This document shows positions 4,086 through 32,000 of a stretch of DNA of 32,000 bases, piece after piece (positions within the stretch are counted from its first letter, which is position 1; every line of letters begins with the position of its first letter). The translations under genes and the position numbers were made by a program. Origin of the DNA: Chlamydiales bacterium (GTDB lineage Bacteria; Chlamydiota; Chlamydiia; Chlamydiales; SM23-39); assembly GCA_965261025.1 (NCBI GenBank), contig OZ253438.1:1080001-1112000 (forward strand). Reading direction: 5' to 3'. The notes beneath the pieces were generated by a model. That model made no database searches and was not told the origin of the DNA. It was given only the letters and a program-made list of their open reading frames with translations.

Positions 4086-4158
4086 GGGGCGTTAGCTCAG
4101 CTGGTAGAGCGCAACAATGGCATTGTTGAGGCCAACGGTTCGACTCCGTTACGCTCCA
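4086..4158 (+). tRNA. tRNA-Ala (anticodon GGC), 73 nt, CCA not encoded
   Basis: Hand-folded cloverleaf: acceptor GGGGCGT/ACGCTCC with the G3:U70 alanine identity pair; D arm GCTC-AGCTGGTA-GAGC; anticodon arm CAACA-ATGGCAT-TGTTG (GGC); variable loop AGGCC; T arm AACGG-TTCGACT-CCGTT; discriminator A. Confidence 0.93.
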
Positions 4159-4173
4159 AATTCGGAGGCTTTT

Positions 4174-5773: not shown

Positions 5774-5797
5774 GACTTCCCTTCATGTAAAGCTGTT

Positions 5798-6553: not shown

Positions 6554-6561
6554 GGACAAAG

Positions 6562-15548: not shown

Positions 15549-15801
15549 GGTATTTACAAAAAGGGAGTTGCTGCATGTTAAAGAAGGCCTTTAGCGCAAA
15601 ATCAATCGGCTTTATAGCTTAACCATCTCTTGCATGACTTAAAGGAAGCTTTTTCCTTAACTCTTTGCAAAAGAGCTTCAATCTTAACAAAAAGCAACCC
15701 TGTACGGATAATAGTAAAATTTTTGCTTTGCTTAATTCTTGATTATAAAATTTTAAATATAGTACGATCTCCGAAAATTTTGCTTCCCTGTGAGAGAGCG
15801 T

Positions 15802-17823
15802 ATGAATATATTAGGGATTTGTGGGGCTTTTGGCACTCCGGACGGCGATTTTGTCCCTGAAACTCCGATTTGGTTTTATCATGATGCTACGGCCTGCCTT
15901 ATCCAAGACGGAAAACTGATTGCAGCTTCTGAAGAAGAGCGTTTTAACCGGATAAAACATACTACGAAATTTCCCTTGAATGCTATTCGTTATTGTTTGG
16001 AAGAGGCGAATCTTAGTTTTGCACAAATTGATGGAGTAGCCTACTATTTTTCTCCTCCTTACGTGGATAAAGAGCTCTATTTAAAGTATATCTCTTTTCC
16101 AGAGAGCCCTGTGCGTGATTGCAAACAACTCCTATTAGAATTAATTACGGAAAATTTTGATCGGAACTTTGATTCCTCTAAGCTTGTTTTTGTTGAACAT
16201 CATCTTTGCCATGCCTACTCTGCTTTTTACCATTCTGGTTTTGAAAAGGCTTTAACTGTTGTCTTGGATGGGCAAGGGGAAAAATATGGCATCTCAGTTT
16301 ATCATACCAGCCTACAGGAAACACAACCTTTACAGTCTTATACCGGCTCTGACTCCCTCGGGCATTTTTTTGTAGAATCAATAAAAATCCTTGGATACAA
16401 ACTGTTTGATGAATATAAGGTAATGGGTCTAGCTCCCTATGGGGATCCTAGTATATTTCGCCCTTTGTTTGACAAGCTCTACCGCCTTTTACCAAATGGG
16501 AATTATAGCCTTAATATCCCCCTGAATCGGATCCGTTCATTTTTTCTCAAAAACGGGATACAACCCCGTCGGAGAGGCGAACCATTTAGCAAAATACAGG
16601 AAAACTTCGCTGCTTCACTGCAAGAGGCTCTTGAAAAGATTGCCTTTCACCTTATTTCCCATTGGCAAAAAAAGACGGGATTGAAAAATCTCTGTATGGC
16701 AGGAGGCGTAGCACATAATTGTACGTTAAATGGTAAGATTGCTTGTTCTTCTCTCTTTGATAAAATGTTTGTTCATCCCGCGGCCTTTGATGCGGGAGCT
16801 GCTATCGGGGCTGCTATGTATGTTTCTGAGCAAAAGGGAGCTCTGATCAAGCAAAGCGGCCCTATTCGATCTATTTATTGGGGTCCTCATATTGAGACTA
16901 AGGAAACAAATATCGAAGAGAAGCTCTCGAAGTGGTCTGACTTAATGAAGCTTGAGTATAAATCCGATATTGAAAAAGCAGGAGCAAAACTCCTAGCAGA
17001 GGGGAGTGTGATAGGTTGGGTTCAGGGCAAAATGGAATTTGGCCCAAGAGCTCTGGGAAATCGAAGTATTCTAGCAGATCCTAGACCGGGAGAAAATAAA
17101 TCACGAATCAACGCAATGATTAAAAAGCGGGAAGCTTATCGTCCTTTTGCTCCTTCGATCCTTGAAGAAGAAGTGTCCCATTTTTTTGAATTACCTAAGT
17201 GTGAAATTGACTTGTCCTTTATGACTTATAATCTCGAAGTAAGAAAAGAATACCAAAAACAGCTTGGCGCTATCACGCATGTGAATGGGACAGGAAGGAT
17301 ACAAACAGTTAGTAAAGAGCAGAATGAGAGATATTGGAAGCTGATATATTATTTTCAAAAGCTTACTGGGATTCCGCTTCTTTTGAATACTTCATTTAAC
17401 AACAATCACGAACCCATTGTGTGTACAATAGAAGACAGTATAGCTTGTTTTCTTACTACAGGTCTGGATTATTTAGTGGTAGGAAATTATCTATTAACAA
17501 AGAAGGATAACTTTATTGAAAATTTGCTTAATTTATCCGTATCCTTACCCCCTCATGTCAAATTGTGTAAACTCCATTCTTCTACTGGTTTGGTGAGATA
17601 TACAATTCGCTCGAGTGTATCCTCTCTTGCAGAAATTGAAGTAAGCGAAAACCTATACCACTTCCTTAGAGAAGACTTTTCCTTTATTTCTTCTCTAAGT
17701 TCTCAAAGGCAAGCTATCCTTGCCCAAGAGCTTTATGATTGCTGGTCGTATCGAATGTTTTCTTTTCAACCGGGTACCTTAAAAACTCCAAAACAAGAGA
17801 TCTATCAAACAGCTAATGTCTAG
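15802..17823 (+). CDS. Carbamoyltransferase A (NodU/CmcH/TobZ family)
   Basis: Kae1-like N-domain (MNILGICG, FYHDATACL, EEERFNR, HHLCHA, LDGQGEK). YrdC-like C-domain (GPRALGNRSILADPR, REAYRPFAPS, HVNGTGRIQTV, NTSFNNNHEPIV). The track start GTG 15790 is less likely than ATG 15802. Confidence 0.9.
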   Translation: MNILGICGAFGTPDGDFVPETPIWFYHDATACLIQDGKLIAASEEERFNRIKHTTKFPLNAIRYCLEEANLSFAQIDGVAYYFSPPYVDKELYLKYISFPESPVRDCKQLLLELITENFDRNFDSSKLVFVEHHLCHAYSAFYHSGFEKALTVVLDGQGEKYGISVYHTSLQETQPLQSYTGSDSLGHFFVESIKILGYKLFDEYKVMGLAPYGDPSIFRPLFDKLYRLLPNGNYSLNIPLNRIRSFFLKNGIQPRRRGEPFSKIQENFAASLQEALEKIAFHLISHWQKKTGLKNLCMAGGVAHNCTLNGKIACSSLFDKMFVHPAAFDAGAAIGAAMYVSEQKGALIKQSGPIRSIYWGPHIETKETNIEEKLSKWSDLMKLEYKSDIEKAGAKLLAEGSVIGWVQGKMEFGPRALGNRSILADPRPGENKSRINAMIKKREAYRPFAPSILEEEVSHFFELPKCEIDLSFMTYNLEVRKEYQKQLGAITHVNGTGRIQTVSKEQNERYWKLIYYFQKLTGIPLLLNTSFNNNHEPIVCTIEDSIACFLTTGLDYLVVGNYLLTKKDNFIENLLNLSVSLPPHVKLCKLHSSTGLVRYTIRSSVSSLAEIEVSENLYHFLREDFSFISSLSSQRQAILAQELYDCWSYRMFSFQPGTLKTPKQEIYQTANV

Positions 17824-18958
17824 TTTAACAAGGGAATATTCCCAAGCTACCCTCATTTTAGAAGATGGAACCTCCTTTTTAGGAAGAACTTCGAGCAATA
17901 TAAAAACAAAGCCCTGTGAAATCGTATTCAACACAGCAATGACGGGATATCAAGAGGTTATTACCGATCCTTCTTATCATGATCAGATTGTTGTATTTTC
18001 TTATCCTCATATAGGAAACATTGGGGTTAACCAAGAAGACCAAGAATCGAAATCTCCGAAAGTAGCTGGAGTGATCGTAAAAGAAATGTCTCGATGCACA
18101 AGTAACTGGAGAGCAGAAGATAGCCTAATTAAATACTTGGAAAAGCACGGGATACCCTGGATTGAAGGCATTGATACTAGAAAACTTGTTAAGCATCTTC
18201 GCACCCATATGAACATACAAGGTGTTATATGTCCAGGAAACGAGGTAGTAAACTACAAACTACAAGCGGCAAACTATGGCTCCCTAAAAGAGCCCTCATT
18301 GCAAAAAATTTCAGTTGACAAACCCGAAGACTGGGTACAACAGACGGTGAGAGAGCCTAGAAAAACTTTTCGAGTAGCTATCATTGACTTTGGAGTCAAG
18401 CACAGCATTCTGAAAACGCTCCATTCGCTAGGAGGGAATGGAAGGCTTTTTCCGCCTAATGTTGCCATTGAAACCATACTAGGCTGGAGCCCTGATGGAA
18501 TTATCTTATCAAACGGACCAGGAGATCCTAAAAATGCCGTGGGGTTTATTCCTACTCTGCTAGGATTAGCCGAAAAAAACTACCCTATTTTGGGCATTTG
18601 TTTCGGTTGTCAAATTATAGCATTAGCTTTTGGTGGTATGACAAGCAAGATGTTCGTGGGGCATCATGGAATCAATCATCCTGTGATTGATCTACGTACT
18701 AACAGAGTCTTTATTTCGAGTCAAAATCATAATTTTGTTGTGGAAGAGAGTCAGTTACCGAATGAACTTAAAATCACTCATCGCTCTCTTTTTGACGGAT
18801 CAATTCAAGGAATACGGCACACTATCTACCCTATTATGGCTCTTCAAGGACATCCCGAAGGAAATCCGGGACCACAAGATTTACACCTCTGTTTTCACGA
18901 ATTTTTGAGTCTGATTTTTTCTCATCAAAAAAAGATTTTGGAGAAAGCATGCCTTTAG
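17816..18958 (+). CDS. carA: Carbamoyl-phosphate synthase small (glutaminase) subunit
   Basis: Motifs: ATLILEDGTSFLG, FNTAMTGYQEVITDPSY, SNGPGDP, GICFGCQ (Cys nucleophile), LQGHPEGNPGPQD. Overlaps the upstream gene by 8 nt. Confidence 0.93.
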   Translation: MSSLTREYSQATLILEDGTSFLGRTSSNIKTKPCEIVFNTAMTGYQEVITDPSYHDQIVVFSYPHIGNIGVNQEDQESKSPKVAGVIVKEMSRCTSNWRAEDSLIKYLEKHGIPWIEGIDTRKLVKHLRTHMNIQGVICPGNEVVNYKLQAANYGSLKEPSLQKISVDKPEDWVQQTVREPRKTFRVAIIDFGVKHSILKTLHSLGGNGRLFPPNVAIETILGWSPDGIILSNGPGDPKNAVGFIPTLLGLAEKNYPILGICFGCQIIALAFGGMTSKMFVGHHGINHPVIDLRTNRVFISSQNHNFVVEESQLPNELKITHRSLFDGSIQGIRHTIYPIMALQGHPEGNPGPQDLHLCFHEFLSLIFSHQKKILEKACL

Positions 18959-21798
18959 ATAATTCGATAAAAAAAGTGCTAACTATAGGCTCTGGTCCGA
19001 TAGTGATAGGGCAAGCTTGTGAATTTGATTATTCGGGTACGCAAGCCTGTAAAGCCCTGCAAGAAGAGGGGGTAAAAGTTATTCTACTCAATTCTAATCC
19101 TGCCACTATCATGACAGACAAAGATATAGCAGATTCTGTTTACATTGAACCCATTACCCCTAGGGTAATAGAGCAAATCCTAAAAGAGCAAAAACCTGAT
19201 GCAATCCTTCCGATTATGGGGGGACAAACAGCCTTGAATGTAACTTTGGAGCTTGAAGAGCAAAAAGTATTTAACAAGTTTCCTACAAGACTTATAGGTC
19301 TCAGCACAGAGACCATTAAAGTAGCAGAAAATCGGCTTCTGTTTAAAAAAGCCTTAAATGAAATTGGATTAGCTACCCCTTGTTCTGTATATCTTCAGTC
19401 TTTGAAAGAATTACAAGAGGCAAAAAACAAACTTCACTTCCCCTTAATTGTGAGGAGCTCTTTTACTTTAGGTGGAGAATTTGGGGGAGTAGTTAACACA
19501 TTGGGTGAGCTGGAAATTCTTTGTAAGAAAGCTTTCTTCTCTGGTAAAGGCCTTTTAGTAGAAGAGTCACTAATTGGATGGAAAGAGATCGAACTAGAAG
19601 TTATGCGAGATCACGTAGGAAATTGTATAGTTGTGTGTGGAATAGAAAATCTAGATCCCATGGGAGTTCATACGGGTGATTCGATAACTGTAGCTCCTAT
19701 TCAGACTTTATCAGATAAAGAATACCAAGAAATCCGTTTGCAAGCCTTTCGAGTCATGGAAAAAGTAGGAATGACTTCGGGAGGATGTAATGTTCAGTTT
19801 GCAATTCATCCACAAAAGGGAAAAATCTATTGCATAGAGATGAATCCCAGGGTTTCACGCTCTTCTGCCTTGGCTTCAAAAGCTACCGGTTTTCCGATTG
19901 CGAAAATTGCAGCGAAAATTGCTCTCGGATACAACTTATATGAACTTCAAAATGGGCTTACTTCATCCAATATCCCTTCTTCCTTTGAACCTACTTTAGA
20001 CTATGTAGTTACAAAAATACCGAAATTTAATTTTGAGAAATTTCCTGATGTTAATGAAGAACTAACCACTCATATGAAATCCGTAGGAGAAGTAATTGCA
20101 ATTGGAAGGACCTTTAAAGAATCCTTCCAAAAAGCCTTGAAAAGTTTAGAGATACCCATCCCACATAAGGCGTACAATGGTGAACAAGATACTCTCAAGA
20201 AAAGAGATGCCAAAAAAATATATCGTGTTTTAGAAGCCCTTAGAGAAGGGATTTCAGTTCAAACTATGGCCCAACTGACAGGCTATGACCCTTGGTTTCT
20301 CGATCAGTTATCTCAAATCATTGAGACAGAATCAGAAATTCAAACTTATAGAGCTTCTTCTATTCAAAGAAATGCACTTTTACGATGGAAACAAAATGGG
20401 TTTTCTGACCAGGAAATTGCCCAGTTATTGCATTCTAATGCAAGCTTCATTGAATCCTTGAGAAAGCAATTTGAACTATCTACAGCCTATAAAAGAATTG
20501 ATACCTGTGCAGGAGAATTTCCCACCCAAACTGCTTATATGTACTCTACCTATGAACAAGAGTGTGAGAGTGCTCCAACCCGTTGTGAAAAAATATTAGT
20601 TCTTGGTGGTGGCTCAAATCGAATTGGACAAGGTATTGAGTTTGATTATTGCTGTGTCCATGCTCTGCAATCTATCAAAAAGATGGGATATGAAGCGATC
20701 ATGCTCAATTGCAATCCGTCCACAGTTTCTACAGATTACAATATGGCAGATCGTTTGTATTTAGAGCCTTTAGCAGCTGAGTATGTCATGGAAGTAGTAC
20801 AAAAAGAAAAACCCAAGGGGGTTATTATCCAATTTGGAGGACAAACTCCCATCCAAATTGCCAGGAGTCTTTCTCTGCAAGGCGTTCCCCTCTTAGGAAC
20901 TCCCTTTGACATGATTGAAAGATCAGAAGATCGCGATAAGTTCAAACAAGTCCTTATAGAGTTAGGCCTTTCCTACCCAAAAAGCTTTTCAGGGAATCAC
21001 CCTGAAGAAGTTCTTGAACCGATTTCTGAAGTAGATTTTCCCCTAATAGTACGCCCTTCTTTTGTAATTGGGGGCAATGGAATGCAAGTTCTGTATACAA
21101 AACGACAACTTGAAACCTATCTTGAAAAGATCGATTTTGAGCAGATTAAGCCTCTTTTAGTTGAGTCCTTTGTAGAAAATGCCCTTGAAATAGAGATCGA
21201 TGCTATTGGAGATAAAGAGCAAGTTACTATCTGCGGAGTTATAGAGCACCTTGATCGAGCTGGTATCCATTCAGGGGATTCGATAGCGTATCTCTTTCCC
21301 CATTCTCTAACTGAACAACAGGTCGAAAAATTGGAAAAAATAACTCGGATGATTGGATTAAGGATGGAAGTAATAGGCTGCTTCAATATTCAGTTTGTTG
21401 TATCAGCAGAGGAGATTTTTGTTATAGAGGTCAACCTACGAGCTTCTAGAACGGTTCCTTTACTTGCAAAGATTACAGGCTATCCCCTGGTCGAGATTGC
21501 TATGCATTGTATTCTGGGAAAATCTCTCAAAAGTTTAGCTATTCCAGAGAAAATCGCACCCCAACATCTAGCATTGAAAATTCCTGTATTTCCCTTTACA
21601 AGATTAGGGATTGAATCCCAAAACTTAGGTCCATACATGACCTCTACTGGTGAAGTAATGGCCGTTGCAAAAAATTTTCAAGATCTGCTGAAAAAGGCAA
21701 ACGAGTATTCTTTGAGTATCCGAATCTATAATGAGAAATTCAAAGAATTGATTGCCCCTTATGCAGGATTGAATCCCTCTGTTGTCGGAATCGTTTAG
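18949..21798 (+). CDS. carB: Carbamoyl-phosphate synthase large subunit, 949 aa, apparently without the C-terminal allosteric domain
   Basis: Motifs: GSGPIVIGQACEFDYSGTQACKAL, IEMNPRVSRSSALASKATGFPIAKIAAK, second half GGGSNRIGQGIEFDYCCVHA, VNLRASRTVP. Ends 45 aa after STGEVM. Overlaps carA by 10 nt. Confidence 0.93.
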   Translation: MPLDNSIKKVLTIGSGPIVIGQACEFDYSGTQACKALQEEGVKVILLNSNPATIMTDKDIADSVYIEPITPRVIEQILKEQKPDAILPIMGGQTALNVTLELEEQKVFNKFPTRLIGLSTETIKVAENRLLFKKALNEIGLATPCSVYLQSLKELQEAKNKLHFPLIVRSSFTLGGEFGGVVNTLGELEILCKKAFFSGKGLLVEESLIGWKEIELEVMRDHVGNCIVVCGIENLDPMGVHTGDSITVAPIQTLSDKEYQEIRLQAFRVMEKVGMTSGGCNVQFAIHPQKGKIYCIEMNPRVSRSSALASKATGFPIAKIAAKIALGYNLYELQNGLTSSNIPSSFEPTLDYVVTKIPKFNFEKFPDVNEELTTHMKSVGEVIAIGRTFKESFQKALKSLEIPIPHKAYNGEQDTLKKRDAKKIYRVLEALREGISVQTMAQLTGYDPWFLDQLSQIIETESEIQTYRASSIQRNALLRWKQNGFSDQEIAQLLHSNASFIESLRKQFELSTAYKRIDTCAGEFPTQTAYMYSTYEQECESAPTRCEKILVLGGGSNRIGQGIEFDYCCVHALQSIKKMGYEAIMLNCNPSTVSTDYNMADRLYLEPLAAEYVMEVVQKEKPKGVIIQFGGQTPIQIARSLSLQGVPLLGTPFDMIERSEDRDKFKQVLIELGLSYPKSFSGNHPEEVLEPISEVDFPLIVRPSFVIGGNGMQVLYTKRQLETYLEKIDFEQIKPLLVESFVENALEIEIDAIGDKEQVTICGVIEHLDRAGIHSGDSIAYLFPHSLTEQQVEKLEKITRMIGLRMEVIGCFNIQFVVSAEEIFVIEVNLRASRTVPLLAKITGYPLVEIAMHCILGKSLKSLAIPEKIAPQHLALKIPVFPFTRLGIESQNLGPYMTSTGEVMAVAKNFQDLLKKANEYSLSIRIYNEKFKELIAPYAGLNPSVVGIV

Positions 21799-21810
21799 TG
21801 GAGTAATTTT

Positions 21811-22953
21811 ATGAAAATAGCGGTTGTAGGTTGTGGGTATGTAGCGGGATTTTATATGGCAACTATGCCTAATTTTTCAAAACTCGAGGTAGTGGGAGCC
21901 TTTGATATCGACGAGGAGAGGCTAAATAGGTTCTGTAGGGAGCACCACGTTTATAAATATGCAAATTTTAACGAGCTTCTCCAGGATGAAAAAGTGGATA
22001 TTGTTTTAAATCTCACTTGGATTAAAAGCCATTATACAGTTATCAAGCAGGCTCTTTTAGCAGGAAAACATGTCTATAGTGAAAAACCTCTTACTTACAC
22101 TCTCTCTGAAGGGGAAGAGTTAGTGCACCTGGCAAATAAGAAAAATTTGCATCTTAATGTTGCTCCGTGCAATTTCCTCGGTGCTTCTGGACAAACTCTA
22201 TATCAGCTTATTAAGGATAGCGTCGTGGGAAAAACTCTTCTAGTTCACGCTTCATTACAAGACGGTCCTGTTTACTTAATGGGATATGAAAACTGGAAAA
22301 ATCCCTCAGGGCTTCCTTGGCCTTTTGAAGAAGAATTTACTATGGGATGTGTTTATGAACATGCTGGCTATTATCTGAGCTGGCTTATTCATCTCTTCGG
22401 CTCTGTTATTGAGGTTTCTGCTTTTTCCTCTCCAATTGTACAGGAAATACATGGTAGAGAAAAAAAACTTCAAGGAACCGATTTTTGCGTTGCAGGTCTC
22501 AGACATGAAAGTGGGGTCTGTGTTCATTTTGCTTGTAGCTCAATTTCCCCTTCAGATAATTCTCTAAAAATTATTGGAGAAAAAGGAATTGTACAAGTTG
22601 AAGACTGTTGGAATTGCAATAGTCCTATCTCAGTGCAGTTATTTAACAAAATCGAGCCAAACATAGGACAGAACTCTAAATTTGTTCTCTTAGAAAAAGA
22701 ATCCTGCCCTTTAGTTAAAGGGTTAAATTATCCCTATCACTACAAAGACTCCCACGATATGAATTTCGCAGCAGGGTTAGAAGAATTGAGACTGTCTATA
22801 GAAACGGGAAAAAAATCACGACTAAATAAAGAACTAGCTCTACATGTTCTTGAAATTATTTCTTTAATGGAAGAGCCTGGCGGGGCTCGGCCCCAGCCCT
22901 TTCGACCTAAAACGGCTTATCCTTTGGAGCCAGAATTAGTTCGGACATCTTAA
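21811..22953 (+). CDS. Gfo/Idh/MocA-family NAD(P)-dependent oxidoreductase (sugar/inositol dehydrogenase-like)
   Basis: N-terminal Rossmann motif MKIAVVGCGYVAG and the family motif GKHVYSEKPL. 380 aa. GGAG lies 8-11 nt upstream of the ATG. Confidence 0.85.
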   Translation: MKIAVVGCGYVAGFYMATMPNFSKLEVVGAFDIDEERLNRFCREHHVYKYANFNELLQDEKVDIVLNLTWIKSHYTVIKQALLAGKHVYSEKPLTYTLSEGEELVHLANKKNLHLNVAPCNFLGASGQTLYQLIKDSVVGKTLLVHASLQDGPVYLMGYENWKNPSGLPWPFEEEFTMGCVYEHAGYYLSWLIHLFGSVIEVSAFSSPIVQEIHGREKKLQGTDFCVAGLRHESGVCVHFACSSISPSDNSLKIIGEKGIVQVEDCWNCNSPISVQLFNKIEPNIGQNSKFVLLEKESCPLVKGLNYPYHYKDSHDMNFAAGLEELRLSIETGKKSRLNKELALHVLEIISLMEEPGGARPQPFRPKTAYPLEPELVRTS

Positions 22954-22979
22954 TTTAAAATTACAAAAGGAGGGGAAAT

Positions 22980-24314
22980 ATGTTTGCTATGAAAAGATCT
23001 GATAAGTTGGCCCTTCTGGGTGGAAATCCTCTTGATATCGATTACAAGGAGAGTATTTTCCAGTGGCCCATTATCACCAAAGAAGAAGAAGAGGCTGTTT
23101 TGGAAATTCTAAGAAAGCCCAACTTTAGTGATAGTGAAGTGGTGCCTGCTTTTGAAACCGAATTTGCCGAATGGAATCAAGCAAAATATGCCATAGCCCA
23201 TAGTAATGGAACGAGCGCTGTTCTAACGGCGATGTTTGCTTGCGGCGTAGGTAGAGGGGATGAAGTGATTGCTCCCAGTTTCACTTATTGGGCTACAGTT
23301 CAACAATGCTTTTCTTTGGGCGCAACCATGGTTTTTGCCGATATTGATCCGAAAACCTTATGTATATCTCCTGAAGATATTGAAAAAAAAATCACGAAAA
23401 AAACCAAGGCAATAATAGTAGTCCATTTTTCAGGGTATCCTTGTGAGATGGATTCAATAAATGCTCTTGCAAAAAAATATAATATTAAAGTGATCGAAGA
23501 TGCTTCCCATGCTCATGGAACGCTATATCGTGGAAAAAAAGTGGGTATTCTTGGAGATATTGCTGCCTTTTCTATGTGCGGCAAACCTATATCAATAGGT
23601 GAAGGGGCCATGTTAATTACCAATAGCACAGATCTATACGAAAGGAGTGTGGCATGGTGTGACAAATTTCGTTTTCATTCGGGAAATGTCTCAAATCCAG
23701 AATTGCTTAAATTTGCTGGATTGCCCCTTGGTAGCTGTACAACCCGGATGCACAACCTCAGTGCTGCTGTAGGACGCGTACAGCTCAGACACTACGACCT
23801 ACGCGTCCAAGAAATTGATGCAGCCATGAGCTATTTTTGGGATCTTCTAAGTGAGATTCCCGGTATACAAGCGCACCGTGTTAATAAAAATAGTGGTTCT
23901 ACGATGGGTGGCTGGTATTCTCCTCATGGGATTTATGATCCTGAGCTATTTTCTGGCCTTTCTGTATCCCGGTTTGCCGAAGCAGTCCGAAAAGAAGGGT
24001 TTTACACTTGTACACGCTCTTGTGTCAAAGAACCACTGCATACTCATCCTGTTTTGAATTCCTGCGATATCTACAATGATGGAAAACCTACCAGAATTGC
24101 CTTTTCAAATAGAGAGGTTCGGCAATTTAAAGGATCTCTGCCGGTAACGGAAAATATTAAGACATTTACTGTACCTGCCTTTAGAAAAAATGACCGAAAA
24201 GTCATAGAACAATTTGCAGAAATATTTCATAAAGTAGCTCGCAATCACTTGGAATTAATTCCCGGTGATAAAGGAGATCAAGCAGTCCAAATAGATGAAA
24301 GAGGAAATGGATAA
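22980..24314 (+). CDS. DegT/DnrJ/EryC1/StrS-family PLP aminotransferase (keto-sugar / inosose aminotransferase-like)
   Basis: Motifs: LALLGGNP, WP...EEEEAV, HSNGTSAV, GDEVIAPSFTYWAT, HAHG, and the lysine context AAFSMCGKPISIGEGAMLIT. At 444 aa it is nearer the size I recall for the aminoglycoside StsC/BtrS type than for ~370-aa sugar-nucleotide enzymes. Strong RBS AAGGAGGGG. Confidence 0.88.
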   Translation: MFAMKRSDKLALLGGNPLDIDYKESIFQWPIITKEEEEAVLEILRKPNFSDSEVVPAFETEFAEWNQAKYAIAHSNGTSAVLTAMFACGVGRGDEVIAPSFTYWATVQQCFSLGATMVFADIDPKTLCISPEDIEKKITKKTKAIIVVHFSGYPCEMDSINALAKKYNIKVIEDASHAHGTLYRGKKVGILGDIAAFSMCGKPISIGEGAMLITNSTDLYERSVAWCDKFRFHSGNVSNPELLKFAGLPLGSCTTRMHNLSAAVGRVQLRHYDLRVQEIDAAMSYFWDLLSEIPGIQAHRVNKNSGSTMGGWYSPHGIYDPELFSGLSVSRFAEAVRKEGFYTCTRSCVKEPLHTHPVLNSCDIYNDGKPTRIAFSNREVRQFKGSLPVTENIKTFTVPAFRKNDRKVIEQFAEIFHKVARNHLELIPGDKGDQAVQIDERGNG

Positions 24315-25362
24315 ACAGAATAGACAACTCTCCCAAGGAACTGAAAAAAAGATCCTCGTAGCTCCTCAAGAGCTTCGCCAATTGACAAGCGCTATTTTTT
24401 CACAGTTCTTAAAGGATGAGGAGATCATAAAATGCTTAGCAAATTCGTTTGTTTCGGCTGATTTAGTAGGGCACCACACTCACGGTGTTGCCTCAATCAG
24501 ACCTTACGTCGAAATGACCAAGGAAAAGAGGATTATTCCTAAGGCAAAACCCCGAATAATTGAGAACAATGCTGTAGGCACTTGGGTAGATGGACAGAAC
24601 GGTTATGGAAGATATGCAGCTCGTTGGTCTATGAATAAGTCAATTGAAATTGCAAAAAAGAAGGGAAAGTCGGTTCTATGGTTAAAAAACACCTCTAATA
24701 TTGGTCGTCTAGGTGAATATGCTGAGCAATGTGCAGAAGAAGGATGTATTGGTATAATCACTGTTGGCAGTGGGAATAACAACCAATCAATTGTAGCCCC
24801 TCCAGATTGCGTAAAGCGATTTTTTGGAACAAATCCGATTGCTTTTGCCTTTCCTTTATCAGAAAAAAATACTCCTTTTCTTATTGATCTCTCTCTTAGC
24901 AAAACTACCTATCACCAGGTAGAACAGCACCTTCACATGGATGAATCTCTTAAGGAAAAGTCCCTAATTGATAAAAGGGGAAAATTGACAGATAATCCAG
25001 CTACCCTTTTTGAAGAAGGGTCTATCGTTATGCCAGGGGGGCATAAAGGATTTTGTCTTTCTCTTTTCTTTACCATCTTTGCAGGATTAGCCAATTTAGA
25101 ATTTGAGCAAAAAGGATTAGGGGGAACTTGTTTTATAGTTCTTGATGGAAATCAGATAAAAGGTTTTGAGATTTATAAAGGGCAAGTAAAAGCCTTTCTA
25201 CATCAATGCCGTTTATTAAAAACCCTTGATGGCAAATCGTTGAGATTGCCAGGAGATCATTCTGAAAAATGTCGCGAAAAATATGCAAAGCTTGGTGTCC
25301 CTATTCCAATACAGGTCTGGGAAGATTTAAAAAAAATGTCTTCGGGAAGAGAGGAGCTTTAA
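24295..25362 (+). CDS. Ldh_2-family (malate/L-lactate/sulfolactate/ureidoglycolate dehydrogenase-type) oxidoreductase
   Basis: 355 aa. Family-typical ADLVGHHTHGV, GRLGEYAE, FGTNPIAFAFP and PGGHKGF motifs. Overlaps the upstream gene by 20 nt (an alternative ATG lies at 24307). Confidence 0.75.
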   Translation: MKEEMDKQNRQLSQGTEKKILVAPQELRQLTSAIFSQFLKDEEIIKCLANSFVSADLVGHHTHGVASIRPYVEMTKEKRIIPKAKPRIIENNAVGTWVDGQNGYGRYAARWSMNKSIEIAKKKGKSVLWLKNTSNIGRLGEYAEQCAEEGCIGIITVGSGNNNQSIVAPPDCVKRFFGTNPIAFAFPLSEKNTPFLIDLSLSKTTYHQVEQHLHMDESLKEKSLIDKRGKLTDNPATLFEEGSIVMPGGHKGFCLSLFFTIFAGLANLEFEQKGLGGTCFIVLDGNQIKGFEIYKGQVKAFLHQCRLLKTLDGKSLRLPGDHSEKCREKYAKLGVPIPIQVWEDLKKMSSGREEL

Positions 25363-25363
25363 T

Positions 25364-27223: not shown

Positions 27224-27229
27224 AATTTA

Positions 27230-28540
27230 ATGAATAAAAAGTGGCAGAAAGTTTTAATCCCGTTGGTTTTGGCAAACGCCGGAATTTTATTTGGTTTTGA
27301 TACAGGAAATATTGCCGGTGCTCTTCCTCTGATACGAAGAACACTTCAAACAACCCTTTTTCAAGAGCAGTTTATTGTTTCCATTACCATTTTGGTAGCT
27401 TTCCTAAGTGCCACACTAACGGGTAGGATGGTAGATCGATTCGGCACTAAAAAAATGTTAATTGTCTCCGCTATCCTATACATATTTAGTGCTCTACAAA
27501 GTAGTTTTACCTACTCCCTTTTTGGCTTAATAGTGATCAGATCTATGATGGGGCTAGCTATTGGGATCTCTTCTTTTTCTGCTCCTATGTATATCGCTGA
27601 AATGACTCCTCCAAATCAAAGGGGACGCTATGTTCTTGTAAATGGTATTGCTATTACTTTCGGAGAGTTACTTGCCTTTTCCTGGAGTTATTTTCTAGCT
27701 GATCGAGAAACCTGGCAAGAGACATTTCTTTTAAGTATCCTTCCTGCGTTACTATTACTACTGGGAATGTTGGGTTTACCTTCTGGTAAACAACAAATTT
27801 TAGGCAGTCCCTTTGAAAGATCTTTTCCAGGCTTTTTTCAAAAATTAAAATTTCTAAAGCTTCTTTTTTCTAAAAATGAATTTAAATATCCCCTGACAAT
27901 TGGAATACTTTTGGGTGTCTTTCAGCAATTCTTTGGGATTAATAGCATTATGTATTATGGACCTATTATCTTTGAAGAAATGGGAATGGGTCTGTATAAA
28001 CAACAACTTATTGCTACCATGATGATGGGAGGCACAAATTTTATAGGAACCCTTATTGCAGTTTGCCTTATTGATTCAGTAGGAAGAAGAAAATTGCTGT
28101 TAATTGGCTCTATGATTTCCACTATTTCTTTACTAACGTTAGGACTTTTGATACAGATGAAAATTTCTATATTTCTTTCCCTAGTTGTAATGATGCTTTA
28201 CATTTTTGGATATTGTATCAGTGTTGGTTCTCTATTTTGGCTGGTTATCTCTGAGATTTTTCCTAGTTCCATTCGGGGGTTTTCTATGGGTATCGCAACG
28301 GGATGCCAATGGTTAAGCAATTTTCTCAATTCAAGTATCTTCCTTTCTGCAGTAAATATACTATCTCTACAGGGAGTTTTTTTAGGCTATGCAAGTGTTT
28401 GCGTTTTATGCTTCCTTTTTGTACACGCATTCATTCCTGAAACAAAAGGAATTGCTCTAGCGGAGCTAGAAACCTTTTGGAAAAACGTGAGCCAAAAAGG
28501 AAGGGAAAAAAACCAGGCTAAAAGCCCAAACGTAAGGTGA
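27230..28540 (+). CDS. MFS sugar-porter-family transporter (myo-inositol/hexose:H+ symporter-like)
   Basis: 436 aa with 12 predicted TM segments. Motifs: FGFDTGNIAGALP, GRMVDRFGTKK, QQFFGINSIMYYGPIIF, DSVGRRKLLLIGS, PETKG. Confidence 0.88.
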   Translation: MNKKWQKVLIPLVLANAGILFGFDTGNIAGALPLIRRTLQTTLFQEQFIVSITILVAFLSATLTGRMVDRFGTKKMLIVSAILYIFSALQSSFTYSLFGLIVIRSMMGLAIGISSFSAPMYIAEMTPPNQRGRYVLVNGIAITFGELLAFSWSYFLADRETWQETFLLSILPALLLLLGMLGLPSGKQQILGSPFERSFPGFFQKLKFLKLLFSKNEFKYPLTIGILLGVFQQFFGINSIMYYGPIIFEEMGMGLYKQQLIATMMMGGTNFIGTLIAVCLIDSVGRRKLLLIGSMISTISLLTLGLLIQMKISIFLSLVVMMLYIFGYCISVGSLFWLVISEIFPSSIRGFSMGIATGCQWLSNFLNSSIFLSAVNILSLQGVFLGYASVCVLCFLFVHAFIPETKGIALAELETFWKNVSQKGREKNQAKSPNVR

Positions 28541-28584
28541 GAAGAATCCGTTGTTAAACCCAAATACCACTCTAGATCTGAACT

Positions 28585-29157
28585 CTATTCATTCTCATAC
28601 CACCAAAATTCGTCTAGATGTCTCACTTTCTTCTTTAGTCTACGTCCCATATCATCAACAGCTGTTTTTACTCCGGGATAATCAGAATTACCGTAATCAT
28701 CCCCGCATAAGATAGCATCAGAATTTAAGTTTTTTAACCAATGTTGAATATCGTGCAATACTTCAACTTCCTCATGGCTTCCATCGATATAAATAAGATC
28801 TGCCTTTACCTCTAAGTATTTAGTAGCTTCTCGTGATGTCGCTCGAATAGGGATAATCTTACTAGACAAATTTTCATGAATCGCATTCGACAAAAATTGA
28901 TGGTATGTATCCAGCCCTGGAAAAGTCTCTTTAGATTCCGGCCAGGGATCAATACAAAAAATCCTTCCAGAACTGGGTAGCAATGAAGCAATTAGTCTAG
29001 CTGACTTTCCTAACCAAGATCCAACTTCGATAACCACATTTACGTCTGAGTTCTCAATAAATTTCCTCAACATTTTCTCGTTTGCTTCACGAAACCAGCC
29101 ATGATCATTATAGGCAAGCTTTGTAATCTGAGTATATGGCGTTTGTTCTATAATCAT
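28585..29157 (-). CDS. Class I SAM-dependent methyltransferase (Methyltransf_24-like)
   Basis: 190 aa. Motif I VVIEVGSWLGKSA, then FCIDPW, IYIDGSHEEVEV and LCGDDY. Start overlaps the carbamoyltransferase B stop (ATGA at 29154-29157). Confidence 0.75.
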   Translation of the reverse strand: MIIEQTPYTQITKLAYNDHGWFREANEKMLRKFIENSDVNVVIEVGSWLGKSARLIASLLPSSGRIFCIDPWPESKETFPGLDTYHQFLSNAIHENLSSKIIPIRATSREATKYLEVKADLIYIDGSHEEVEVLHDIQHWLKNLNSDAILCGDDYGNSDYPGVKTAVDDMGRRLKKKVRHLDEFWWYENE

Positions 29158-31142
29158 GTATTTCCTCCCTCTATATTTTCAAAAATCCCTGGATTCATTC
29201 GGATTAGCCGACGAGACCAGATATCGTATAGTTCTGAAATGAATTCATCACTTTCAGGCGCATTATCCAAATGGAGCAAGTATTGATACATTTCTTGAGA
29301 AATATCCTGCTTAAAATGCTTTTTTCCTACGTGTCGGATCTCATAAAAAACTTTTTTGTGTGAATCCATACATTCCACAAGAAAAGCCGATGTTACAAGA
29401 GAAGGAGATAAGCTCGCTACTCTTTGTAAAAACTGGGGTTTTTTTTCAATGATGTAATCGCCTATAACGAGGTAGTCTAAACCTGTTGTAAGAAAGCAAG
29501 TCATACTATCCTCAATAGAGCACACAATGGGCTCGTGATTATTATTGAATGATGTATTCAAAATAATAGGAATCCCCGTAAATTCTTGAAAAGAACGTAT
29601 CAATTTCCAATATCTTTCATTTTGCTCCTTACTAACTGTTTGGACTCTTCCGGTTCCATTTACATGAGTAATAGCTCCCAAATGTTTGCGATGCTCTTTT
29701 TTTACTTTAAGATTATAAGTCATAAAAGAGAGATCAATTTCACAATCTGAAAGTTCAAAGTAATTCCCTACTTCTTCCTCAAGAATCGAAGGAGCAAAAG
29801 GACGGTAAGCCTCTCTCTTTTTTATCATTGCATTGATGCGTGACTTGTTTTCTGCTGGTCTAGGATCAGCCAAAATACTTCGACTTCCTAGCGCCCTTGG
29901 GCCAAATTCCATTTCTCCTTGAACCCAACCCATAACATTGCCCTTTGCAATCAGCTCAGCAGCTAACTCTTCTATCCTAGAGCTATACTCAATCTTTACT
30001 AAATCTGACCAAGTATCCAGTTCTTGCTTAATACTTACCCCTTCTGTTTTAAGGCCAGGACCCCAATAAATGGATCGGATTGGTTTCTCTTTTTTGATGG
30101 CTAATCCTTTCTGTTTAGAGATGCACATACCAGCCCCAACAGCGGCTCCTGCATCGAAGGCTGCTGGATGAACAAACATTTTATCAAAAAGATTGGAACT
30201 TGCGATTTTACCATTTAACGTACAGTTATGTGCTACCCCTCCTGCCATGCAAAGATTTTTTAGCCCTGTTCTATACTTCCAATGAGAAATGAGATGAAAT
30301 ACTATATTTTCTAAAGCTTCTTGCAGTGCTGCAGCAAAGTCTTTATGAATTTTACTAAATGGCTCGTTTTTTCGACGTGGCTGAATCCCCTTTTTTAGAA
30401 AAAAAGATCGAAACTGCATTAAAGGAATGCTGAACGAATAAGCTCCGTCGGCCTCCAGGGTATAGAGCTTACTAAACAGGGGTTGAAACACGGAAGGATC
30501 TCCATAGGGAGCAAGCCCCATAACCTTGTACTCATCAAACATGTCATAGCCCAAAATCTTAATTGACTCTAGGTAAAAAGAACCCAGGGAAATATCGTAG
30601 TGGTAATCAGAAAGAAAATGCAAATTTCCCTCTTTTCCTTCAAAAATTGATGTGGATTCTTTTTCACCACGACCATCAATGATTACAGTGAGCGCAGAGT
30701 CAAATCCTGAATGGTAATAAGCAGAAAAAGCATGACAAAGATGATGAGGAAGAAACTGGATCCGATCCTCAGAAAAATTTTTGTCAAAAAACTCGGAAAA
30801 TAATCTTCCTAGCAACTGCTTAGACGATAAACAAGGAACATGTGGATGTGAGATATACTGCAAGTTGAGCTCATTATCCACAAAATCATCTTTGTAGTAA
30901 TATCCTATTGCCTCAATTTCCGAAAAAGAAATACCTGCTTTTTCCAGGCAAAAAGAGATACTATGATAAGGAAACATCGTAGTGTGTTTTTTACGATTCA
31001 GACGCTCTTCTTCCACTGCACAAAGGAGCTTACCTTCTTTGAAAAGAGCCGCAGCAGCATCATGATAAAACCACTTTGGAACATAGGGTAAAAATGTTCC
31101 TTCCTTCGTATAAAAACCACCTGAAATTCCTAAAACATACAT
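29154..31142 (-). CDS. Carbamoyltransferase B (NodU/CmcH/TobZ family), paralogue of 15802-17823
   Basis: Same motif set as copy A: MYVLGISGG, FYHDAAAAL, HHLCHA, IDGRGEK, GPRALGSRSILADPR, REAYRPFAPS, HVNGTGRVQTV, NTSFNNNHEPIV. The track start TTG 31157 is less likely than ATG 31142, which follows AGGAA. Confidence 0.9.
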   Translation of the reverse strand: MYVLGISGGFYTKEGTFLPYVPKWFYHDAAAALFKEGKLLCAVEEERLNRKKHTTMFPYHSISFCLEKAGISFSEIEAIGYYYKDDFVDNELNLQYISHPHVPCLSSKQLLGRLFSEFFDKNFSEDRIQFLPHHLCHAFSAYYHSGFDSALTVIIDGRGEKESTSIFEGKEGNLHFLSDYHYDISLGSFYLESIKILGYDMFDEYKVMGLAPYGDPSVFQPLFSKLYTLEADGAYSFSIPLMQFRSFFLKKGIQPRRKNEPFSKIHKDFAAALQEALENIVFHLISHWKYRTGLKNLCMAGGVAHNCTLNGKIASSNLFDKMFVHPAAFDAGAAVGAGMCISKQKGLAIKKEKPIRSIYWGPGLKTEGVSIKQELDTWSDLVKIEYSSRIEELAAELIAKGNVMGWVQGEMEFGPRALGSRSILADPRPAENKSRINAMIKKREAYRPFAPSILEEEVGNYFELSDCEIDLSFMTYNLKVKKEHRKHLGAITHVNGTGRVQTVSKEQNERYWKLIRSFQEFTGIPIILNTSFNNNHEPIVCSIEDSMTCFLTTGLDYLVIGDYIIEKKPQFLQRVASLSPSLVTSAFLVECMDSHKKVFYEIRHVGKKHFKQDISQEMYQYLLHLDNAPESDEFISELYDIWSRRLIRMNPGIFENIEGGNT

Positions 31143-31229
31143 GGAGAATTTCCTCAAAAATTGAATATTGTAAAAACAAGCAGGTACGTTACTATATAGA
31201 AAATATTTTTTACAAGTCTAGGTATACAA

Positions 31230-32000
31230 TTGGGTTTTCCTGTTTTCATTCTTACAACTTACTGCTCTGAAAAAAAAGATGTTACCTATTTCTCTGAAGC
31301 ACTAGATGCTATCCTTAACCAAACAGATCCCCATTTTCATCTTATCATTATTGATGACTGCTCTCCTTATCCGGATTTTAAGGAGTATCTTGCGATAGTA
31401 TCTAGGAAAGATAAAAGGATTTTCTATCATGTAAACCTTAAAAACTCTGGGGTTTCTCAATCAAGAAACTATGGGATTAAATGGGCTAAATCTCACAGAG
31501 CCCCTTTTGTTATGTTCCATGATGGTGATGATATATCTCCATTAGACAGACTGGAGAAAACAAAAAAACTATTTAACCATAAGGAGGTAGATCTAGTGTA
31601 TTCTACCTTCATCCCAATAGATGAGTTTTCCAACATTCGAGATTTTCATGAAATTGCTGAAGATGTACGTAATACAATTCATCAACTTAAAAAATCTGCA
31701 CCAGAGGGAATGAATGCCTGGCTCGACTTAACCTTAAAATTTGGCTATTGCAATCTTACTTCAGCCACTGCAGTCCGGACTGAAATAGCTATACAAACTC
31801 CATTTCCTCTTTATAGATTCTCTGAAGATGCCCATACCTGGTACAGGATGATGGCTTTGGCTAAAAATGTAGTCTTTGACCCCTCTTTTCCAACCTATTA
31901 TCGAATGCCTAATAATTCAACCTATGGAATTGCTTCTAAAGATAGATTGGGAAAATACTTCTTCTTAGAAAAAATTAAAGCCGATTTAAATGGATTTTTA
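31230..32000 (+). CDS. Family 2 glycosyltransferase (GT-A fold), 3' end outside the window; not in the supplied ORF track
   Basis: My own translation of the frame open from 31200 to the window end: (L)GFPVFILTTYCSEKKDVTYFSEALDAILNQTDPHFHLIIIDDCSPYPDF...NSGVSQSRNYGIKWA...FHDGDDIS (DxD)...FSEDAHTWYRM. There is no in-frame ATG near the 5' end; TTG 31230 is the best start candidate. Confidence 0.8.
   Translation, partial: MGFPVFILTTYCSEKKDVTYFSEALDAILNQTDPHFHLIIIDDCSPYPDFKEYLAIVSRKDKRIFYHVNLKNSGVSQSRNYGIKWAKSHRAPFVMFHDGDDISPLDRLEKTKKLFNHKEVDLVYSTFIPIDEFSNIRDFHEIAEDVRNTIHQLKKSAPEGMNAWLDLTLKFGYCNLTSATAVRTEIAIQTPFPLYRFSEDAHTWYRMMALAKNVVFDPSFPTYYRMPNNSTYGIASKDRLGKYFFLEKIKADLNGFL

Follow-up and report, generated by a model that had tools for sequence, protein, structure and literature searches.

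A chlamydial locus with its own carbamoyl-phosphate supply and a six-gene cassette shared across phyla, a probable source of a carbamoylated amino-sugar or amino-cyclitol glycoside

What does a chlamydia make with a carbamoyl-phosphate synthase of its own, encoded among two carbamoyltransferases, a Gfo/Idh/MocA dehydrogenase and two aminotransferases? This question is raised by a locus in the genome of a Chlamydiales bacterium (assembly GCA_965261025.1), found in the second half of a stretch of 32,000 nucleotides of contig OZ253438.1 (positions 1,080,001 to 1,112,000 of the forward strand), hereafter the window. An earlier note, made from the sequence of the window, had read the locus as an accessory pathway for a carbamoylated and methylated amino-sugar or amino-cyclitol. 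The present analysis keeps this reading as to a biosynthetic and accessory locus with its own carbamoyl donor and an amino sugar or cyclitol as target, sets aside the analogy with Nod-factor decoration, and brings in features that had been missed, namely a conserved cassette with Ldh_2 and AT600 in its core, a truncated CarB and the exporters that accompany the cassette elsewhere. We hold it to be probable, with room for doubt, that these genes form a biosynthetic cluster whose product would be a small exported glycoside with a carbamoylated amino sugar or amino-cyclitol; such a compound would count among the aminoglycoside-like specialised metabolites. What is newly recognised is an uncharacterised six-gene cassette with a very rare pyridoxal phosphate (PLP) enzyme.

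A six-gene cassette recurs across phyla

Pfam and NCBIfam profile searches of the window proteins, with scores read against the model cutoffs, confirmed the family that the earlier note had assigned to each of the 11 open reading frames (ORFs) of the locus. Six of these families, namely a family 2 glycosyltransferase (GT2), a Gfo/Idh/MocA dehydrogenase (Gfo), a DegT-type aminotransferase (DegT), an Ldh_2 dehydrogenase, a PLP enzyme of about 600 residues called here AT600, and a carbamoyltransferase (CT), form, as judged by gene content, a unit that recurs from phylum to phylum. Every full-length AT600 that could be located on a contig has most of its partners next to it, within the reach of that contig. 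The closest relative, found on metagenomic contigs (L001 to L003), has carA, carB (950 aa), Gfo, DegT, Ldh_2, AT600 and a sugar-porter transporter of the major facilitator superfamily (MFS), followed by a convergent CT, a divergent GT2 and a MATE pump; its proteins are 45–75% identical to those of the window and the ORF lengths match, so that the genes have been maintained. Saccharothrix syringae (L004) has AT600, CT, DegT, Ldh_2 and Gfo, and the set is found in varying order in three Streptomyces, in a betaproteobacterial metagenome-assembled genome (MAG; L011), in a Pyrinomonadaceae MAG, in two Rhabdochlamydia MAGs and on five further metagenome contigs.

An all-versus-all comparison of 11 loci found CT, Ldh_2 and AT600 in 10 of them, Gfo and DegT in 9 and GT2 in 5, and these six families were the only ones broadly shared; the comparison left out loci L018 and L020, which add two more GT2 lineages. 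Gfo orthologues are present in nine related loci, GT2 homologues 34–59% identical to the window protein are found in L001, L005, L007/L008, L011, L018 and L020, and DegT is 59–61% identical between the chlamydial and the actinomycete (Saccharothrix, Streptomyces) copies. The core genes are clustered in loci from several phyla. The earlier note had the enzyme families right and did not integrate Ldh_2 and the ~600-aa aminotransferase into its scheme, though both belong to the conserved core and are its most distinctive members.

The setting of the cassette differs from host to host. In the betaproteobacterial MAG (L011:3759-15145), it follows an IS110-family transposase and has a G+C content at third codon positions of about 0.5 against 0.6–0.8 in the flanks, and two chlamydial versions lie in unrelated genomic neighbourhoods, one of which (L002) adjoins TraD and DsbB. 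Because of the recurrence across phyla, the betaproteobacterial setting and the unrelated chlamydial neighbourhoods, we read the cassette as an old, horizontally mobile unit under selection and not as a chance juxtaposition in this genome. Furthermore, since it occurs in the culturable Saccharothrix syringae and Streptomyces ruber JCM 3131, its product could be identified there and not in the uncultivable chlamydia.

Two peculiarities of individual loci were also seen. The GT2 of L011 is a 668-aa protein fused to a C-terminal PaaK/F390-synthetase-like adenylating domain. On the two Rhabdochlamydia contigs, the 3' end of DegT comes first and its 5' part last (L007:1-285 and 6689-7660; L008:1-531 and 6903-7871), which gives the order DegT-Ldh2-Gfo-AT600-GT2-MFS-DegT, so that either DegT is present in two copies or the assembly is at fault; these contigs have no CT, and circular or tandem contigs are unsupported, as no exact terminal overlap is present.

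Organisation of the locus

Eight closely spaced ORFs of the plus strand occupy positions 15802 to 28540 of the window (Table 1). Recomputed junctions are −8 nt (CT_A/carA), −10 (carA/carB), +12 (carB/Gfo), +26 (Gfo/DegT), −20 (DegT/Ldh_2), +1 (Ldh_2/AT600) and +6 (AT600/MFS). A second CT (CT_B) and a methyltransferase form a convergent pair opposite to this unit, where the stop codon of the first and the start codon of the second overlap as ATGA (read as ...acATGAtt... in the sequence, with GGAGG upstream), and a divergent GT2 ORF begins at about 31230 and runs off the end of the window. The recomputation reproduced exactly the gene list, every junction distance and the ATGA overlap of the earlier note, and the incomplete GT2 ORF agrees with its statement that the locus extends past nt 32000. 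As for the single operon claimed there, the tight spacing is exact and makes co-transcription plausible; in a scan of the region, promoter and terminator consensus matches were no more numerous than the shuffled expectation, and an Rfam search upstream of the operon returned no riboswitch or leader that could name a ligand.

Table 1. Features of the locus, in window coordinates
Feature	Position	Strand	Remarks
Promoter-like site TTAACA-17-GATAAT	15684..15712	+	Candidate; 10/12 positions match; precedes the eight-gene unit, in an intergenic region of 253 nt
CT_A carbamoyltransferase, 673 aa	15802..17823	+	Carbam_trans_N + Carbam_trans_C; lineage-specific paralogue
carA, glutaminase subunit of carbamoyl-phosphate synthase	17816..18958	+	TIGR01368 408 bits, cutoff 307
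carB, synthetase subunit without C-terminal MGS-like domain	18949..21798	+	TIGR01369 1247 bits, cutoff 1027
Gfo/Idh/MocA NAD(P)-dependent dehydrogenase	21811..22953	+	Pfam; core cassette
DegT/DnrJ/EryC1 PLP aminotransferase	22980..24314	+	Pfam 259 bits; core cassette
Ldh_2 (type-2 malate/L-lactate/sulfolactate/imino-acid) dehydrogenase	24295..25362	+	PF02615 246.7 bits, cutoff 38.8; core cassette
AT600, class-I aminotransferase-fold PLP enzyme, 619 aa	25364..27223	+	Split Aminotran_1_2; core cassette
MFS sugar-porter transporter	27230..28540	+	TIGR00879 254 bits, cutoff 238; chlamydial addition
Methyltransf_24 S-adenosylmethionine (SAM)-dependent methyltransferase	28585..29157	-	PF13578 71 bits; window-specific addition
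CT_B carbamoyltransferase	29154..31142	-	Carbam_trans_N + Carbam_trans_C; orthologue of the cassette enzyme
GT2 glycosyltransferase, incomplete at window end	31230..32000	+	Weak TuaG, EpsE, WcaA matches; core cassette

AT600 and the Ldh_2 dehydrogenase

AT600 is rare and, of the cassette genes, the most diagnostic. A word-index search of 5.8e9 proteins returned 7 matches, and an exhaustive profile search among 1.84e9 representatives returned 62 relatives at E<1e-30. The protein matches PF00155 in two pieces (59.6 bits, cutoff 19.7), and its AlphaFold2 model (pLDDT 74) folds like a class-Ib aminotransferase into which a helical segment is inserted (about residues 206–296; ~90 residues); Foldseek matched this model to class-Ib aminotransferases at probability 1.0, as regards the generic fold only. 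The residues S376-K377, D345, Y348 and R589 are invariant in six members of the family and, by analogy with aminotransferases of this fold, would be the PLP-lysine motif (SxK), two cofactor contacts (D345 and Y348) and the arginine that holds the alpha-carboxylate (R589). A tblastn search of 72,556 plasmids gave no match, so that nothing points to carriage on plasmids.

Distant AT600-like PLP domains occur in other proteins (P0143, P0152, P0155 and P0164). One of them stands at the C-terminus of a 4383-aa hybrid of polyketide synthase (PKS) and nonribosomal peptide synthetase (NRPS) with the domain order KS-AT-DH-KR-ACP-C-A-...-AT600, and others are fused to thioesterase, condensation or ATP-grasp domains. 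There are hints here that the AT600 family supplies or processes non-proteinogenic amino acids.

Ldh_2 covers positions 2–333 of the 333 of its Pfam model and reaches no equivalog cutoff (best, 160 against 336 bits); its best Protein Data Bank (PDB) matches are type-2 malate dehydrogenase, sulfolactate dehydrogenase and DpkA. Enzymes of this family act on alpha-keto/alpha-hydroxy acids or on cyclic and N-alkyl imino acids. Wherever both genes are on one contig, Ldh_2 comes after DegT, usually abutting or overlapping it (by 20 nt in the window).

The Gfo/DegT pair, the glycosyltransferase and the importer

Gfo has a GCGYVA Rossmann motif and an EKP motif, and its similarity is weak and about equal to UDP-GlcNAc 3-dehydrogenase, the inositol dehydrogenase IolG, glycoside 3-dehydrogenases and WlbA. 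It scores 55 bits against the inositol 2-dehydrogenase model TIGR04380 (cutoff 355), where the N-terminal domain alone is covered, 60 bits against the UDP-GlcNAc(A) 3-dehydrogenase model NF040723 (cutoff 450) and 55 bits against WlbA (3q2i). DegT, with its SMCGKP motif and putative PLP lysine K202, scores 145.6 bits against BtrS, 146 against other 2-deoxy-scyllo-inosose (DOI) aminotransferases and 149 against glutamine:scyllo-inositol transaminase, and on the other side 153 against perosamine synthase, 157 against KdnA, 176 against an uncharacterised DegT protein and 125 against WbpE. Cyclitol and nucleotide-sugar/glycoside specificities of Gfo and DegT are not separated by these PDB and NCBIfam comparisons (145–176 bits for DegT). 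The window DegT has more than 2,600 protein matches at E<1e-60; a 53%-identical member of its subfamily was seen on a Clostridiaceae metagenome contig (L014:9001-10332), where it stands alone among rpsR, rplI, dnaB, tilS and ftsH.

The best matches of the window GT2 are TuaG, EpsE and WcaA, at 53 bits or less, and its L001 orthologue is 310 aa long. The closest solved structures of the MFS protein are GlcP and XylE. A sugar-porter MFS is present only in the three chlamydial versions of the cassette (the window, L001 and L007/L008) and not in the non-chlamydial ones. Together with carAB, such additions fit precursor import and donor synthesis that free-living hosts would already have, since a genome-reduced intracellular bacterium must bring both.

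A carbamoyl-phosphate synthase without its allosteric domain

CarA consists of a CPSase small-chain domain and a class-I GATase domain with an intact Cys-His-Glu triad, the GICFGCQ nucleophile elbow and the GHPE motif being present. CarB (949 aa) has CPSase_L_D1 and D2 twice and D3 once, with both ATP-grasp halves intact and an oligomerisation domain; it aligns to positions 1–925 of the 1058 of NF003671, the next gene begins 12 nt past its stop codon, and the Pfam search gave no PF02142 match, which means that the MGS-like allosteric domain of about 130 aa is missing. This domain of CarB is the site of UMP, IMP and ornithine. The identification of carAB as a carbamoyl-phosphate synthase in the earlier note is borne out by scores above the equivalog cutoffs, while the truncation had escaped it. 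The nearest relatives of CarB are about 17 protein clusters of 921–1008 aa that also have no PF02142, one of which is labelled "Chlamydiae bacterium", and for this reason the absence of the domain is not a lesion; the next-best matches are full-length betaproteobacterial CarB proteins of about 51% identity, with PF02142.

Three genomic contexts of this truncated-carAB clade were read, of which two are [NiFe]-hydrogenase operons and one has a carbamoyltransferase; none has pyr or arg genes. HypF uses carbamoyl phosphate to make the cyanide ligands of hydrogenase. On two chlamydia-like metagenome contigs (L015:8875-22364 and L017:4182-17904), carA-carB (CarB of 964 aa) lies directly upstream of a four-subunit [NiFe]-hydrogenase, in operons that also carry HycI-HypA-HypF-HypC-HypD-HypE, and looks like a dedicated carbamoyl-phosphate supply for the synthesis of the cyanide ligands by HypF in organisms that probably have no other use of carbamoyl phosphate. 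In the third context (L016:234-7839), carA and carB (968 aa) are followed by a NodU-type carbamoyltransferase 36% identical to that of the window and by a 513-aa protein that has no Pfam match; none of the cassette genes is present in L016. Rhabdochlamydiaceae are reported to have type 3b [NiFe] hydrogenases (PMC8242063), and complete de novo pyrimidine synthesis has been described as rare in Chlamydiota (PMC13229535).

Among the cassette loci, carAB is linked to the cassette in the window and in its closest relative L001 and not in the others. Because its truncated relatives adjoin HypF operons or a carbamoyltransferase, the truncated carAB looks like a portable module for carbamoyl-phosphate supply that becomes attached to whichever enzyme needs the donor. 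This behaviour supports the central proposal of the earlier note, a carbamoyl donor made by the locus itself, as do the 8-nt overlap of carA with CT_A and the linkage of carAB to the cassette kept in L001, a relative of 52–75% identity. More generally, it suggests that a CarAB without the allosteric domain serves as a portable supply module in genome-reduced bacteria that have no pyrimidine and arginine synthesis.

Two carbamoyltransferases and a methyltransferase

Both CTs have the two-domain architecture of NodU, CmcH and TobZ, with a Kae1-like Carbam_trans_N and a YrdC-like Carbam_trans_C domain (175–179 and 227–229 bits; cutoffs 24 and 27). The start of CT_A is most likely ATG 15802, and that of CT_B most likely ATG 31142, which alignment with CT_A favours over TTG 31157. 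The two proteins are 61–62% identical and both keep the motif HHLCHA...DG(Q/R)GE, which we take to be the metal site (HxxxH...D) of the Kae1-like domain of TobZ. In PDB comparisons, CT_A matches NovN (9s2t) over residues 2–657 with an E-value of 4.6e-167, GdmN with about 1e-165 and TobZ with about 1e-81, that is, 560 bits for NovN/GdmN against 277 bits for TobZ. From their family, CT_A and CT_B are predicted to transfer the carbamoyl group from carbamoyl phosphate, with ATP, to a hydroxyl group of the substrate.

In a neighbour-joining tree, CT_A is sister to CT_B with the single CT of L001 (57–61% identical) as outgroup, and this L001 enzyme is 61% identical to CT_B and has the same position and orientation. 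The methyltransferase, whose sole family match is PF13578 (Methyltransf_24), has a homologue in none of the related loci. CT_A and the methyltransferase are additions specific to the lineage of the window and not part of the core. Since they are such extras, the two carbamoyl groups and one methyl group foreseen by the earlier note are plausible in this lineage, and the product of the window is probably a doubly carbamoylated, methylated derivative of the product of L001.

Neighbours of the cassette in other genomes

Among the genes found beside the cassette elsewhere are those of small-molecule export and of specialised metabolism. In Streptomyces, an MFS_3 exporter lies between AT600 and CT, and a TetR gene is at the edge of L009; ABC exporters are present in L004 (Saccharothrix) and L006, and L001 has its MATE pump after GT2. 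In two closely related Streptomyces (L009:849-5732 and, at the same coordinates, L012), a BtrC-like 2-deoxy-scyllo-inosose synthase (DOIS), a family 4 glycosyltransferase (GT4), an MFS protein and a nucleotide-sugar dehydrogenase abut the cassette. This DOIS-like protein is closer to BtrC (2D2X; E-value 3e-62) than to dehydroquinate synthases, which match it at 3e-37 at best, and it falls short of the aroB cutoff; the two loci may be hybrid 2-deoxystreptamine-type clusters. Furthermore, a 94.7-kb metagenome contig with a GC content of 0.63 carries a GT2-Gfo-DegT-DegT-CT sub-cassette followed by a multi-module NRPS (L018:7837-21326); its proteins are 38–57% identical to those of the window, and Ldh_2 and AT600 are absent.

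Two further neighbours were noted. A GH3 glycosidase is located upstream of the L018 sub-cassette, and another GH3 lies immediately upstream of AT600 in Saccharothrix (L004:7518-9959). Just downstream of Gfo, L009 (5884-6300), L010 (5879-6295) and L011 (12701-13135) encode a NTP_transf_2/Pol-beta-type nucleotidyltransferase of 139–144 aa, which is 39% identical between phyla and has no counterpart in the chlamydial loci. Conceivable roles of this small protein are self-resistance, tailoring or that of an antitoxin like MntA.

Genomic setting of the window

The locus and its flank are alike in GC content (0.382 and 0.375, respectively), so that there is no compositional sign of recent acquisition. 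The flanking genes listed in the earlier note, a divergent recC-like gene, an lplT-like MFS gene, thrS and genes for outer-membrane proteins (OMPs), were all found. Upstream of the locus are a UPF0137/pGP6-D homologue, a ParA-like protein and a Chlam_OMP-related protein, and these matches support the chlamydial origin of the window. The pGP6-D homologue (5024-6559, minus strand; UPF0137, E 9e-78) stands beside the ParA-like ATPase on a contig recorded in the protein database as 1.42 Mb long, which suggests a chromosomally integrated plasmid partition module. Apart from this, a tRNA gene (4086-4158, plus strand; Rfam 64 bits) overlaps the called start (4117) of a DapA-like ORF (4117-5058), whose true start must therefore be further downstream, and a partial match to CDP-glycerol:poly(glycerophosphate) glycerophosphotransferase (TagF-like; PF04464 positions 192–294 of 367) at 21-680 of the plus strand belongs to a family unexpected for a chlamydia.

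A proposed pathway

The gene set can be arranged in the following order of steps. The sugar-porter MFS, clear as to its family, would import a hexose or myo-inositol of the host, and GT2 would join a hexose derived from a nucleotide sugar to an acceptor. Gfo would then oxidise a ring hydroxyl to a ketone and DegT would transaminate it to an amine; families and motifs of both enzymes are evident, and the position and the substrate are our proposal. In the least certain step, the DegT-linked Ldh_2 and AT600 may interconvert alpha-hydroxy, alpha-keto and alpha-amino acid functions, with the outcome that an amino-acid-like part is built or that an alpha-keto acid is reductively coupled to the new amine; we propose this because of the family chemistry of the two enzymes and the retained alpha-carboxylate arginine of AT600. 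CarA and the shortened CarB would make carbamoyl phosphate, presumably free of feedback from pyrimidine and arginine pools. CT_B, and here also CT_A, would carbamoylate one or two positions by way of carbamoyl-AMP, and a methyl group would be added by the Methyltransf_24 enzyme, assigned by its family. Finally, by analogy with L001, a MATE pump beyond the edge of the window may export the product.

The keto-to-amino step followed by carbamoylation on a sugar or a cyclitol, as the earlier note had it, remains the best reading, and the nature of the ring is divided almost evenly. A hexose of a glycoside is slightly favoured because of the universal GT2 and the NRPS-linked sub-cassette, and a cyclitol comes close behind because of the DOIS neighbour, the length of DegT and the importer.

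Discussion

The placement of the cassette in the specialised metabolism of a small exported molecule is argued from its exporters, its DOIS and NRPS neighbours, the megasynthase fusions of AT600-like domains and the likeness of the CTs to NovN and GdmN; synthesis of an envelope polysaccharide and catabolism would fit poorly. Several points weigh against such a glycoside cluster. Gfo and DegT are well below every equivalog cutoff and about equally close to both substrate classes, and the ~443-aa DegT subfamily is also common in Clostridiaceae as a stand-alone gene in a housekeeping context, so that DegT alone is not diagnostic of secondary metabolism. The Pyrinomonadaceae locus has no detectable Gfo and its CT belongs to another subclade, the DOIS neighbour is restricted to two closely related Streptomyces and absent from S. 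ruber (L010), and the window itself shows no gene for export or resistance. Moreover, GT2 resembles enzymes of polysaccharide type (TuaG, EpsE, WcaA), co-transcription of the eight genes is read from spacing alone, and the products and enzyme activities of all cassette members are predicted ones.

The most serious rival, which was the leading idea of the earlier note and which we find unlikely overall, is an aminocyclitol route in which the MFS protein imports host myo-inositol, Gfo is an inositol dehydrogenase and DegT an inosose aminotransferase, acting possibly twice, with as product a scyllo-inosamine or streptamine-type core, which then receives an O-carbamoyl group as in bluensidine, a methyl group and, from GT2, a glycosyl residue. 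The BtrC-like DOIS and the GT4 that abut the cassette in L009/L012, where DegT is the sole DegT-type aminotransferase, speak for a cyclitol, and yet DOIS is in no other cassette locus. The length of DegT (~440 aa) is that of 2-DOI/inosose aminotransferases, and its alignment with them reaches residue 339, further than with nucleotide-sugar enzymes, although the PDB scores of the two classes are indistinguishable. IolG is among the best matches of Gfo, at a score far below its cutoff. An importer added only by intracellular chlamydiae would fit a precursor that actinomycetes make themselves; the NRPS-linked sub-cassette of L018, which has no cyclitol gene, fits the amination of a transferred sugar better.

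Improbable, in our judgement, is the decoration of an envelope glycan, where GT2 would place a carbamoylated, methylated amino sugar on lipopolysaccharide, lipooligosaccharide or another surface glycan. The polysaccharide-type matches of GT2, the OMP genes near the locus and the Gfo and DegT pair, which follows the logic of WbpB/WbpE and GnnA/GnnB (with WlbA among the PDB matches of Gfo), point that way. However, no flippase, polymerase, lipid-carrier transferase or sugar-activating nucleotidyltransferase is present in the window or in L001, the cassette is accompanied elsewhere by small-molecule exporters (MATE, MFS_3, ABC) and TetR and associated with NRPS and DOIS, the CTs are closest to NovN and GdmN, and a nucleotide-sugar pathway would not be expected to come with an importer for free sugar. 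A mixed neighbourhood, in which a carAB for pyrimidine or arginine synthesis and catabolic or salvage genes for host sugar or inositol (MFS, Gfo and the aminotransferases) are merely beside the CTs, is suggested by the housekeeping role of CarAB in most bacteria and by the catabolic operons in which MocA/IolG-type dehydrogenases typically accompany MFS importers, but is very improbable and was rejected both as catabolic operon and as housekeeping carAB, given the overlapping or minimally spaced genes, the carAB-cassette arrangement kept in L001, the loss of the CarB domain that ties the synthase to pyrimidine and arginine pools, the truncated clade beside HypF or a carbamoyltransferase and not beside pyr/arg genes, and the lasting association of five enzymes in four phyla, where kinases, aldolases and isomerases are lacking.

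Returning to the exported carbamoylated glycoside, the literature search found this gene combination described neither in Chlamydiae nor elsewhere, in line with the earlier note, which knew of no such pathway in Chlamydiae. Secondary metabolism in Chlamydiota has been recognised only recently, and the biosynthetic clusters reported there are NRPS-like, RiPP-like (ribosomally synthesised and post-translationally modified peptides), type III PKS, terpene and phosphonate clusters (PMC9666466); a sugar-based, carbamoylated, aminoglycoside-like type is not among them. Such a pathway could underlie defensive symbiosis or host manipulation. A bolder form of this reading, tentative and on balance doubtful, is that an obligate intracellular chlamydia makes a new aminoglycoside-like class from host sugar or inositol and exports it into the host cell, bis-carbamoylated and methylated, with a DegT-coupled Ldh_2/AT600 chemistry that could be an opine-type reductive N-alkylation of an amino sugar or a reaction that turns the alpha-hydroxyl of a sugar acid into an alpha-amino acid. 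If true, the compound could be a defensive or host-manipulating metabolite, and soil actinomycetes would make the same scaffold. This would imply that an antibiotic pathway had passed from one phylum to another and into an endosymbiont, where it then became self-sufficient through a carbamoyl-phosphate synthase free of regulation.

Comparison with known systems

The decoration of Nod factors (NodC/NodS/NodU/NolO) was put forward by the earlier note as an analogy, and the two systems have in common a GT2, a SAM methyltransferase and two NodU-family CTs. Nevertheless, the analogy fails and the system was rejected, as every one of its defining features is lacking. The CTs score 158.5 and 151.3 bits, over a partial region, against a cutoff of 1000 for the NodU equivalog NF041651, the GT2 is a TuaG/EpsE-like protein of ~310 aa and not a NodC-type chitin-oligomer synthase, the methyltransferase belongs to Methyltransf_24 and is not a NodS, and this methyltransferase and the second CT are lineage-specific and not core. 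With WbpB/WbpE (= WlbA/WlbC) and GnnA/GnnB, the locus shares a Gfo-family 3-dehydrogenase and a DegT protein at the level of the family only; its scores are far below the equivalog cutoffs, the window has no acetyltransferase, epimerase or polysaccharide-assembly genes, and cassette loci have a free-sugar importer and small-molecule exporters.

CarA and CarB resemble canonical CarAB in their scores, glutaminase triad and ATP-grasp halves and differ from it by the missing MGS-like domain and by a clade tied to maturation and tailoring enzymes that consume carbamoyl phosphate.

Closer systems are the scyllo-inosamine and streptamine pathways. StrI/StsC of streptomycin, SpcB/SpcS2 of spectinomycin and MosB of rhizopine are dehydrogenases or aminotransferases of cyclitols; bluensomycin is carbamoylated on its bluensidine moiety, and rhizopine is O-methylated. 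The likeness lies in a Gfo/Idh/MocA dehydrogenase and a DegT protein, which in those pathways act on a cyclitol, and in the DOIS neighbour of L009/L012. In contrast to these pathways, the window has no phosphorylation or amidinotransferase genes and no equivalog-level match, and they would leave its GT2, Ldh_2 and AT600 unexplained.

The closest logic is that of aminoglycoside tailoring, where KanD2/KanS2, TobD2/TobS2 and GenD2/GenS2 are dehydrogenase-aminotransferase pairs and TobZ is the 6''-O-carbamoyltransferase of nebramycin 5'. A BtrC-type DOIS was found neither in the window nor in L001. The window differs from these clusters in that it has neither DOIS nor GT4, uses a GT2, has its own carAB, adds Ldh_2 and AT600, which have no counterpart there, and has CTs nearer to NovN and GdmN than to TobZ. 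What both share is a glycosyltransferase, a dehydrogenase of a ring hydroxyl, a DegT aminotransferase and a carbamoyltransferase of TobZ/NovN type with carbamoyl phosphate and ATP as its substrates, and it is this succession of D2/S2-like pair and carbamoyltransferase that the chlamydial locus most resembles.

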